Shown here piece after piece: positions 1 to 36,464 of a stretch of 36,464 bases of DNA. The stretch is taken from IMG/VR virus record IMGVR_UViG_2645727593_000019. One strand, given 5' to 3'. Origin of the DNA: a virus (Duplodnaviria > Heunggongvirae > Uroviricota > Caudoviricetes). Below the pieces are notes generated by a model. The model ran no database searches and was not told the origin of the DNA. It saw only the letters and a list, made by a program, of their open reading frames with translations. The number at the start of each line of letters is the position of its first letter. Within the stretch, counting starts at the first letter, position 1. A program made the translations under genes and the position numbers.

Positions 1-993
1 CTAATCGATGGACAGTTTATGGACACTTTCAGCCAGCGGATTAAAGTTGATCGCGTCCTGTAAAAAGTCCGGCGAAAAATGAGCGTACGTCATTGTTTGC
101 TGAATCGTTGCGTGCCCCAGGATTCGTTGCAACGTAACAATATTTCCGCCATTCATCATAAAGTGTGTGGCAAATGTATGACGCATGACATGCGTAGCCT
201 GCCCCTTCGGCAAATCCGGTTTCACCTCCTGAAGAATCTCCCGGAACTTCAGATAATCAACCTGATACAATAACCCCGTTCGACGGGTTTTAATCAGAGG
301 CACGACCGAATCCGCCACAGGAACCGAACGGGATTTTCCGTTTTTGGTGTTAAAGAACGTCACCCGGTTGCCAACGATATGCTCTCCACGTAGTTCCGAT
401 GCTTCACTCCATCGGGCACCAGTAGAAAGACACAGAATGGCAACACGACGCGCATCACCCTCCAGTCGTTCAAGAAGCCGTTCAATCTCATCATCAGAAA
501 GAAAGGCCATCTCTGTGTTCTGAACTTTCAGTTTTCGTATACCGCGTACAGGGTTCGCGTTGTGAAAGACCTCAGCTTCAATCAGCACCGTGAACATGGT
601 AGACAGTACGCATAAGTCACGATTAATACTGGACGGCATTAATCCGGCCTGTAATTTCTCTGACCGATATTCAAGCATAAATTTTCGCGTCATCTGACTG
701 GCGCGAGGATCTCCCATTTCACGAACAACCTTCCCTAGCCTAACCCTGTAGCTATCCCCGTAAGCCTGATTACGCCCATCAAGCATCCACCACGCATCAA
801 GCAGCTCTGATAATCGCCGCTGATCAGCTGGCTTAGCCTGCCATGGCTTGTCATGAAAGTTCTGTAACACATACTTCTCAAACTCCTGAGCCTTTGATTT
901 CAGGGCAAAGATTTTTCGAATCCGCTTTCCTTCCGCCCCCTGCGGTCTGACATCGACCTGATAACGTCCGTCTTTGAGTTGCTTAATCGACAT
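1..993 (-). CDS. int: tyrosine integrase, P2 Int family
   Basis: Track ORF 1..1008; start trimmed to MSIKQLKDGRY to match the P2 Int N-terminus; C-terminal HxxR...Y region (MRHTFATHFM...MTYAHF) present; stop codon at bases 1-3. Confidence 0.9.
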   Translation of the reverse strand: MSIKQLKDGRYQVDVRPQGAEGKRIRKIFALKSKAQEFEKYVLQNFHDKPWQAKPADQRRLSELLDAWWMLDGRNQAYGDSYRVRLGKVVREMGDPRASQMTRKFMLEYRSEKLQAGLMPSSINRDLCVLSTMFTVLIEAEVFHNANPVRGIRKLKVQNTEMAFLSDDEIERLLERLEGDARRVAILCLSTGARWSEASELRGEHIVGNRVTFFNTKNGKSRSVPVADSVVPLIKTRRTGLLYQVDYLKFREILQEVKPDLPKGQATHVMRHTFATHFMMNGGNIVTLQRILGHATIQQTMTYAHFSPDFLQDAINFNPLAESVHKLSID

Positions 994-1062
994 GATTAGC
1001 CCCTCCAACGGATAAATTAACTAAACACTCCTTGCGATATGTAATTCGCTCAATGTGTAGAG

Positions 1063-34278: not shown

Positions 34279-34539
34279 ATGTTCCGTTGTCCGCTTTGTG
34301 GCGCATCTGCCCGTATCCGCACCAGTCGTTCGGAAAATGATTCAAACACCGTACGGAAAAAATATTACCAGTGTAACAACCTGGAATGCGGCATAAGTTT
34401 CTCAACACTGGAAGCTTTCCATAAATTCACATCGAAACACGCCCCCGGCGTTCACTCTTCAGAAGGTATCCCGTGGCATGAGTTGCCAGCTTCACACAGG
34501 GGAAACAATCAGATGAGTTTGCCTTTATCTCAGAATTAA
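34279..34539 (+). CDS. ogr: Ogr/Delta-family zinc-finger late transcription activator
   Basis: MFRCPLCG...YYQCNNLECG matches the P2 Ogr Cys4 pattern (MFHCPLC...YHQCQNVNC). Confidence 0.8.
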   Translation: MFRCPLCGASARIRTSRSENDSNTVRKKYYQCNNLECGISFSTLEAFHKFTSKHAPGVHSSEGIPWHELPASHRGNNQMSLPLSQN

Positions 34540-34730
34540 CAGGCAGAATTGCCGGAGTAACAAAAAAGCGATAGATTACGCGCGGGTGCCTTTCGGCTGA
34601 TGGTCGGAGGGAATACCCGAAGGCCGGATGTGGAAAGGCCCCGGAAAACATCTCTGTTTAACCGAGGCCCTAACATATCTACCTTAAGCAAGTGATAGGT
34701 TAGCGCCTCTCCAACAAAGGAGCAAGCGCT

Positions 34731-34871
34731 ATGTCGCAAAAATCGCTTACGGCCATCACGTTCTGCGTGACGGTAATCCTCATAATCTGGATGCTGCACG
34801 GTTCGCTGTGTGAAATACGGATGAGCTTCTGGGGAGCGGAGTTTGCGGCGTTCTTACAGTGTAAGCAGTAA
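34731..34871 (+). CDS. hok: Hok/Gef-family type I toxin
   Basis: 46-aa ORF MSQKSLTAITFCVTVILIIWMLHGSLCEIRMSFWGAEFAAFLQCKQ: TM helix followed by the SLCEIR and AAFL.CK signatures of Hok proteins; SD AAGGAG 9 nt upstream. Confidence 0.6.
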   Translation: MSQKSLTAITFCVTVILIIWMLHGSLCEIRMSFWGAEFAAFLQCKQ

Positions 34872-34957
34872 GGAAACCGCGACGGGGGAGCAATCCCCCG
34901 TCAATCGGTTGCCAGGGTAAGGTCGATAAGGCACCCTATCTCACAGACATGAACAAC

Positions 34958-34992
34958 AAACCCGCAGCGTAAAAACTGCGGGTTTTCTTTTT
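34958..34992 (+). terminator. rho-independent terminator after hok
   Basis: AAACCCGCAG-loop-CTGCGGGTTT followed by a T-rich tract. Confidence 0.7.
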
Positions 34993-35023
34993 GGTTCCCT
35001 CACTCATGAGGACACCAAAAACA

Positions 35024-35055
35024 AAGCCCATAGCATAGAATGCTGTGGGCTTTTT
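35024..35055 (+). terminator. second hairpin/terminator
   Basis: AGCCCATAGCA/TGCTGTGGGCT stem with one mismatch, followed by TTTTT. Confidence 0.45.
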
Positions 35056-35130
35056 GCATTCAAAGATGGACGTTATATGGACACTTAAAAATAAAATCCA
35101 TTTATTTTCAAATAATTAAACTTCTACTTA

Positions 35131-35152
35131 AAGCGCCCGCAGGCGCTTTTTA
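35131..35152. terminator. hairpin at the serS 3' end (candidate bidirectional terminator)
   Basis: AGCGCC-CGCA-GGCGCT followed by TTTTT on the plus strand, 20 nt from the serS stop. Confidence 0.5.

Positions 35153-35171: not shown

Positions 35172-36464
<1,293 letters not shown>

Follow-up and report, generated by a model that had tools for sequence, protein, structure and literature searches.

A hok/sok-type type I toxin–antitoxin module, very probably intact, at the right end of a P88-like prophage

Plasmid R1's hok/sok system comprises a small membrane toxin with an SLCE motif (Hok), an mRNA with tac and fbi boxes that form a fold-back, ucb, GAGG and dcb boxes and a stem-loop that protects the 3′ end, and an antisense RNA (Sok) whose promoter lies in the hok leader and overlaps the region of the hok Shine-Dalgarno (SD) sequence. 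Translation of R1 hok requires the mok frame (PMC9841398, PMC4147584), and in the truncated, processed mRNA the last stem-loop is protective at the 3′ end (PMC9841398). Escherichia coli K-12 carries chromosomal relatives that include hokB/sokB and hokC (gef)/sokC, with their mokB and mokC frames, whilst hokW–sokW of the Stx2 (Stx, Shiga toxin) prophage Sp5 has been shown experimentally to be a toxin–antitoxin system of type I (Takada et al. 2021; PMC8621323). Here we describe a locus of this kind at positions 34,540 to 35,130 of a 36,464-nucleotide stretch of Caudoviricetes DNA (IMG/VR record IMGVR_UViG_2645727593_000019), which we refer to as the window. A 46 amino acid (aa) Hok/Gef-family open reading frame (ORF), with its leader, its 3′ untranslated region (UTR) and a predicted antisense gene, very probably makes up an intact hok/sok-type type I toxin–antitoxin module that is accessory cargo of a P88-like prophage integrated in the serS terminator.

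Each of the R1 elements has a counterpart here, the ucb and dcb boxes as ucb-like and dcb-like sequences and the antisense RNA and its promoter as predictions. The two systems differ in the length of the peptide (46 aa here, 52 in R1) and of the leader before the hok AUG (147 nt here, 173 in R1), in the carrier (a prophage here, not a plasmid), in that there is no mok frame here and in that the present locus scores below the gathering score of the Rfam model. The likeness to K-12 lies in the geometry of the putative Sok promoter, which follows that of hokB/sokB (−35, 17 nt, −10, 7 nt, G), and in the design of the predicted Sok itself, which like SokB and SokC consists of a 5′ tail and one stem-loop with GGCCUCGG...CGGGGCC. 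Unlike hokB and hokC, however, the locus has no equivalent of mokB or mokC and is matched by Rfam at 44 rather than 110–118 bits. hokW–sokW is likewise a prophage-borne hok/sok module, but HokW belongs to a different Hok cluster, is 51 aa long, starts MKQQKAM and is preceded by a different leader sequence.

The toxin gene has the following coordinates:

34731..34871, + strand: hok coding sequence, ATG start, 46 aa plus stop, MSQKSLTAITFCVTVILIIWMLHGSLCEIRMSFWGAEFAAFLQCKQ

It lies between ogr and serS and has its own SD sequence (AAGGAG at 34717–34722, spacing to the hok ATG 8 nt), just as the original prediction had it, and was missing from the list of ORFs owing to a 60-aa filter. Membership of the Hok/Gef family, also claimed beforehand, is borne out by two profile matches. 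Pfam HOK_GEF (PF01848) aligns with residues 7–44 over profile positions 5–42 of 42 at 30.1 bits with E 3.7e-7, the cut-off being 22, and PHROG 251, whose label ‘MokW-like host killing’ derives from hokW–sokW, aligns with residues 1–46 over positions 2–49 of 50 at 82.8 bits (E 2.5e-23; PHROGs are without a curated cut-off). Scores against the NCBIfam HokA equivalog NF007290 (35.8, cut-off 89) and the Hok subfamily NF007279 (23.6, cut-off 73) are below threshold. The peptide is best described as a relative of the named K-12 Hok paralogues but not one of them. When it is aligned with K-12 HokB and HokC, identity is only 24%, with the helix C/T pair, the LCE motif and the later E retained. Seven positions are conserved in >80% of 1264 Hok peptides (M1, C16, T18, L30, C31, E32 and E41; bioRxiv 10.1101/2025.08.07.668861), and all seven are found in the present peptide as M1, C12, T14, L26, C27, E28 and E37 (offset 4). 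Residues 6–22 (LTAITFCVTVILIIWML) can be read directly from the sequence as a hydrophobic N-terminal stretch. Fourteen distinct variants of the peptide, which come from E. coli, E. albertii, Salmonella and Citrobacter, keep a frame of 46–47 codons free of stops and frameshifts. Because of the Pfam match, the PHROG match and the retention of the frame in these variants, the ORF is, on sequence evidence, a genuine Hok/Gef-family gene and not a chance ORF.

The protein is not new. The exact peptide is entry 1628, in cluster 72, of a 2025–26 Hok catalogue (Escalera-Maurer et al., bioRxiv 10.1101/2025.08.07.668861). It is identical to RefSeq WP_000078920.1 (‘Hok/Gef family protein’), found at the same position after ogr in strain UTI89, where the locus translates to the same peptide. 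PHROG 251 (phage P88 gp52, for example) is a further close counterpart, and in P88-like phages the position after ogr is again the same. Toxicity, which the original prediction had named as a check beside the family match, was the property for whose assay the catalogue study cloned two members of cluster 72: 72_1621, which differs from the window peptide by one residue (V15A), and 72_1589, the 76%-identical Stx-phage variant. Only three of the 45 constructs are named there as non-toxic (19_179, 60_1482 and 69_1540), and the cluster-72 constructs are not among them (bioRxiv 10.1101/2025.08.07.668861). The outcome that was to refute the original prediction, no toxicity and no family match, has therefore not come about. 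The same catalogue deliberately left Mok, Sok and the mRNA elements unanalysed (bioRxiv 10.1101/2025.08.07.668861); those of cluster 72 are described here.

The predicted transcript and the elements recognised along it are as follows:

34549..34577, + strand: putative hok promoter, proposed from the sequence; −35 TTGCCG (34549–34554), 17-nt spacer, −10 TAGATT (34572–34577)
34584..34992, + strand: predicted full-length hok mRNA, ~409 nt, its 5′ end set at position 1 of the Rfam RF01794 match
34584..34592, + strand: tac box GGGUGCCUU, the 5′ fold-back partner, a perfect 9-nt complement of 34928–34936
34637..34669, + strand: leader hairpin, from fold and conservation; ucb-like GGCCCCGG pairs with CCGAGGCC, and the opposite strand is the predicted Sok stem-loop
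34701..34731, + strand: SD/anti-SD hairpin of the minimum free energy (MFE) fold; CUCC (34709–34712) pairs with GGAG (34719–34722), closed by AGCGC/GCGCU
34843..34851, + strand: downstream box UUGCGGCGU, inside the FAAF codons; pairs with AUGUCGCAA at 34731–34739, hiding the start codon
34875..34909, + strand: 3′ stem-loop directly after the stop codon, likely 3′ end protector of the processed mRNA
34928..34936, + strand: fbi box AAGGCACCC, the 3′ UTR partner of tac, from conservation and fold
34958..34992, + strand: intrinsic terminator of the hok transcript; hairpin 34958–34985 with a 10-bp stem (six G-C pairs), T-run to 34992

Rfam RF01794 matches the + strand at 34584–34741 over the full length of the model (43.9 bits, E 2.6e-8). 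Although named ‘sok’, RF01794 models the hok 5′ leader, since it is the hok-sense leader of K-12 hokB and hokC that it matches (110–118 bits); other cluster-72 loci score 42–50 bits and, at the gathering score of 59, are missed by the model. The TAGATT of the putative promoter ends 7 nt before the predicted transcription start, G34584. With eight of 12 consensus matches this promoter falls under the scan threshold, and its pattern (TTGnnn, a spacer of 17–18 nt and TAGAnT) is kept in the E. albertii, Citrobacter and Stx-phage homologues despite divergent flanks. The full-length hok RNA has an MFE of −171.9 kcal/mol (z −6.3), a value matched by none of 100 shuffles, and it is the tac/fbi pairing that closes the molecule.

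Conservation was assessed over 18 homologous loci. Taken together, the named helices (tac/fbi, leader hairpin, SD hairpin and 3′ stem-loop) have 91.6% of alignment cells paired, as against ≤50% in slid-partner controls; eight pairs are changed on both sides and the covariation score is reached by none of 500 shuffles. The tac and fbi boxes are paired in both the MFE fold and the alifold consensus (90.5% of cells) and are nearly invariant. Helices 2–3 of the leader hairpin have 80–89% of cells paired and four pairs changed on both sides. A GAGG box at 34664–34667, within CCGAGGCC, presumably occupies the place of the mok SD of R1, the R1 positions being those of PMC9841398. In the SD/anti-SD hairpin, 93.4% of cells are paired and changes are one-sided only (G-C to G-U), which is support from conservation only; the same one-sided pattern is seen in the pairing of the downstream box with the start region (alifold columns 160–168 with 275–283), which is kept in 17–18 of the 18 sequences. 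The compensatory changes are concentrated in the stem-loop just 3′ of the hok stop, where 98.8% of cells are paired and four of nine pairs (34881–34902) show two-sided changes. By analogy with the last stem-loop of R1 hok mRNA after truncation (PMC9841398), this element likely protects the 3′ end of the processed mRNA and could halt exonucleases; a minus-strand ‘terminator’ match at 34903–34880 in the scan is the same palindrome. Fold-back and antisense target elements had been anticipated in the leader, which is correct for tac and for the antisense target but not for fbi, which is in the 3′ UTR.

Similarity to the Stx-phage copy of the locus runs from the −35 box to just past the fbi box and then stops. 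The mobile unit can therefore be placed at ~34549–34940, with the terminator at 34958–34992 specific to the P88-like context. That terminator is common to P88 and UTI89 but is not found in the Stx-phage copy, and identity to phage P88 itself stops at 34992.

On the opposite strand, the hok leader has a predicted Sok-like antisense gene:

34697..34725, − strand: putative Sok promoter; −35 TTGCTC (34725 to 34720), overlapping the hok SD, and −10 TAACCT (34702 to 34697)
34628..34689, − strand: predicted Sok antisense RNA, ~55–62 nt; a single-stranded 5′ tail of ~13–17 nt and one long stem-loop

The arrangement TTGCTC-17-TAACCT-7 nt-G(34689) parallels that of annotated K-12 sokB (TTGCCG-17-TAAGAT-7 nt-G), which is at the homologous place. 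The complement of the −10, AGGTTA, is invariant in all 18 homologues, and the −35 retains TTG in 17 of them (the forms seen are TTGCTC, TTGCCT, TTGTCT, TTGACT and TTTACT). The predicted RNA folds with −22.9 kcal/mol (z −3.1) into the same shape as SokB (−22.2) and SokC (−21.6), with the GGCCUCGG...CGGGGCC stem common to all three. The minus-strand promoter search suggested in the original prediction thus turned up a sokB-like candidate, albeit one under the threshold of the consensus scan. Together, the Rfam leader match, the conserved tac/fbi boxes and helices and the sokB-like geometry support the type I toxin–antitoxin architecture that had been proposed.

A number of observations weigh against this picture. 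The consensus promoter scan calls no promoter on either strand, so the hok and Sok promoters are proposed from position homology and conservation only, and the Sok −10 is weak, with three of six consensus bases. With 43.9 bits, the RF01794 match falls short of the gathering score (59). The tac/fbi pairing is without covariation, both sides being nearly invariant, and conservation only supports it. The activation step was not reproduced in silico: the SD stayed paired when the RNA was truncated or Sok-masked, and the mean unpaired probability of 34718–34723, a range one base off the AAGGAG at 34717–34722, was 0.33 in full-length, truncated and Sok-masked RNA alike (partition-function folding). 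We also considered an ‘anti-anti-SD’ switch, in which, once the 3′ end is truncated, GAGGCCCUAAC, in the GAGG region, would pair with the anti-SD unless Sok prevented it; the SD was not freed, and the switch is unsupported. The toxicity assays of the catalogue used the coding sequence with a constant, non-native SD rather than the native locus (bioRxiv 10.1101/2025.08.07.668861). Finally, in the window no frame that opens upstream with ATG, GTG or TTG runs as far as the hok SD, all three frames being closed between the leader and the SD; the same script detects mokB and mokC, which start 58 and 57 nt upstream of hok. The upstream ATGs at 34600 and 34628 were rejected as substitutes for mok, as the frame, length (6–79 codons) and presence of their ORFs vary among homologues; the ORF from 34628 has 8–79 codons and is missing in five of 38 leaders. 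With no mok frame at the locus, Sok would have to work here uncoupled from mok.

Taking R1 hok/sok and K-12 hokB/sokB as homologous models, we infer 3′ processing, Sok action and toxicity for this exact locus, and the module would work as follows. A weak promoter would give rise to a stable hok mRNA of ~409 nt that is silent as made, with tac paired to fbi, the SD held in the anti-SD hairpin and the AUG paired with the downstream coding box. Slow 3′ trimming as far as the stem-loop at 34875–34909 would remove fbi and allow refolding. Meanwhile, the short, unstable Sok RNA (~34689 to 34628) would pair with the leader, leaving the mRNA untranslated and/or targeted for RNase III. Were the supply of Sok to stop, through loss of the prophage, transcription shut-off or induction, Hok would be made, insert in the inner membrane and kill or lyse the cell.

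The end of the prophage was mapped by comparing the empty K-12 serS–dmsA site with the attL of strain W13-16, a lysogen with the same junction. The strain was used for attL because the window begins inside the integrase gene: its first feature is the integrase ORF (1–1008, minus strand), at whose end or inside which the window starts, and attL and the dmsA side lie outside it. Exact repeats searched for an attL inside the window gave only a 12-mer chance match. Two features mark this end:

35130..35149, no strand assigned: attR core, 20 bp AAAGCGCCCGCAGGCGCTTT, the serS transcription-terminator hairpin; common to attL, attR and the empty K-12 site
35023..35055, no strand assigned: second hairpin, 14 bp, a bidirectional terminator in the attP arm of the prophage, with T-runs on both strands

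Identity of K-12 to the window begins at 35130, and with the att core at 35130–35149 the prophage DNA extends to 35129, ~260 bp beyond the hok stop codon. Upstream of hok is an Ogr/Delta zinc-finger gene (34279–34539; PF04606, E 1e-15), itself preceded by a gpD-like tail gene, and downstream is serS (35172–36464, minus strand). At the empty K-12 site, serS and dmsA are 238 bp apart with no hok between them. The original prediction had set the locus at the prophage–chromosome junction and suggested this comparison as a way to place attR; the locus does adjoin the prophage end, but it is inside the prophage. From the mapped junction, the hok module is a ‘moron’, cargo that a P88-like prophage (Xuanwuvirus, P2-family) integrated in the serS terminator carries at its right end.

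Both of the tandem terminators predicted after hok exist as hairpins, but only that at 34958–34992 belongs to hok. The second folds with −21.3 kcal/mol on the + strand (z −5.4) and −17.5 on the − strand and is not present after the hok terminator in P88 and Chuche; sequence comparison places it outside the hok module. It could stop serS read-through into the prophage as well as phage transcripts leaving it. The hairpin formed by the att core has −16 kcal/mol on the serS strand. attR rebuilds this hairpin, with the seven-U tail of the serS strand (K-12) replaced by UUUAAGUAG, and serS termination may be weakened in lysogens. The attR arm has two copies of ATGGAC(G/A) spaced by 11 bp, at 35066–35083 (AGATGGACGTTATATGGACACTT), and a similar pair is seen in the attL arm near int (GATGGACAGTTTATGGACACTT); these pairs are candidate arm-type integrase binding sites.

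There is nothing unusual about the module, which is very common and had been annotated and catalogued before. The 392-bp module (34549–34940) is present in 1750 of 5426 complete E. coli genomes, in ≤9 copies per genome and always annotated as Hok/Gef family, and, in a search with a two-sequence alignment as the query, 247 IMG/VR stretches encode a relative. Phages P88, Chuche, P884B11 and 500465-2 (Xuanwuvirus, Peduoviridae) have it directly after ogr with 95–97% identity. An 82%-identical copy of the locus is carried by ~176 Stx-converting and related phages. This copy might have been taken for hokW, an identification that we rejected: its leader and peptide both differ from those shown by the hokW primers, and the copy is a second, distinct hok.

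Cluster-72 hok modules are also seen between gpJ and the tail-fibre gene in lambdoid prophages, and one such module adjoins a type B L31 gene in O157:H7 DEC4E; the ~390-bp unit moves among unrelated phage types. E. coli strain Bongo (NZ_CM153263.1, 1662391–1663729) has three tandem hok modules directly before serS, with peptides ~50–90% identical to that of the window. The prophage at whose end they lie is a different one and has another tail module; hok modules seem to accumulate at the attR-proximal end of serS prophages. Chuche has a com/DNA-methyltransferase (mom-like) cassette between the hok terminator and int, and a com/DNA-methyltransferase cassette is likewise 3′ of hok in strain 700481; the stretch from hok to attP is therefore a variable cargo site. 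Contigs labelled as a Planococcaceae metagenome-assembled genome, Vagococcus sp. and Xanthomonas pisi contain enterobacterial hok modules (100%, 100% and 74% peptide identity, respectively) and are probably assembly contamination. Only the Xanthomonas contig entered an exploratory alignment, and all three were kept out of the covariation alignment.

What does the module do for its carrier? Stabilisation against prophage loss is what would classically be expected. By analogy with described systems, it would most likely stabilise the prophage end in its own selfish interest and might in addition aid lysis on induction, as with hokW–sokW of Sp5, the sole experimental prophage precedent, which aids lysis and phage release after induction (PMC8621323). 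Aid to the phage could instead be the main role, with Hok made on induction speeding lysis and release, or excluding superinfecting phages by abortive infection. hokW–sokW doubles Sp5 release, with HokW appearing after mitomycin C in a RecA-dependent manner, and R1 hok/sok reduces T4 plating (cited in PMC8621323). At the present locus, the module directly follows the late activator gene ogr and shares its orientation, so that late read-through is possible; in the 44-nt gap between ogr and hok no hairpin is seen by reading and no terminator is listed by the scan. In Stx and lambdoid prophages, the same module is found among tail genes. The precedent, however, comes from another Hok cluster, and the trigger may be another one here, since P2-like phages are not known to show classical SOS induction. 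We regard a main role in aiding the phage as doubtful, whilst giving it some weight.

It is improbable that the locus is a decaying or silent remnant, in which the toxin gene is intact and native translation has gone with the mok coupling frame. K-12 chromosomal hok loci are partly inactivated, upstream ORFs stop short of the hok SD both in the window and in most homologues, the ORF from 34628 is variable and the SD is paired in all in silico states. Decay is difficult to square, however, with a conservation that spans species and phage types and takes in the promoter boxes and hairpins, tac and fbi, the Sok elements and the peptide. Together with the compensatory changes, this argues for selection on the whole module; the identical peptide occurs in 63 of the best 80 of the 247 IMG/VR loci, and hok has a strong SD of its own. 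Least credible of all, to the point that we give it hardly any weight, is a chromosomal origin, with the locus a marker of the insertion site and not cargo of the phage, an option that the original prediction had left standing. hok is indeed the last gene before serS, and the tandem modules of Bongo adjoin serS too. Against this, the empty K-12 site has no hok, the att core is ~260 bp beyond the hok stop, the free phages P88 and Chuche carry the locus after ogr and the Bongo modules are also at a prophage end.

We therefore retain the reading of the locus as a hok/sok-type module carried as prophage cargo. For annotation, this means that an ORF filter of 60 aa passed over a short but genuine toxin gene and that the prophage, hok locus included, ends at the serS terminator (attR core 35130–35149). 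As one more copy of a very common, catalogued module, it changes nothing in the field, and the absence of mok in cluster 72 is the only point of wider interest. Cluster 72 occurs in P2-like, lambdoid and Stx phages as well as in roughly one in three complete E. coli genomes. We suggest tentatively, with rather more doubt than confidence, that it has done away with mok whilst keeping tac, ucb, GAGG, dcb and fbi. If so, Sok would silence hok independently of mok, for example through duplex-triggered decay or by making a site ~40 nt upstream of the start unavailable for ribosome standby or refolding, and this abundant mok-less cluster would offer a convenient natural test case for Sok-type control of hok without translational coupling.

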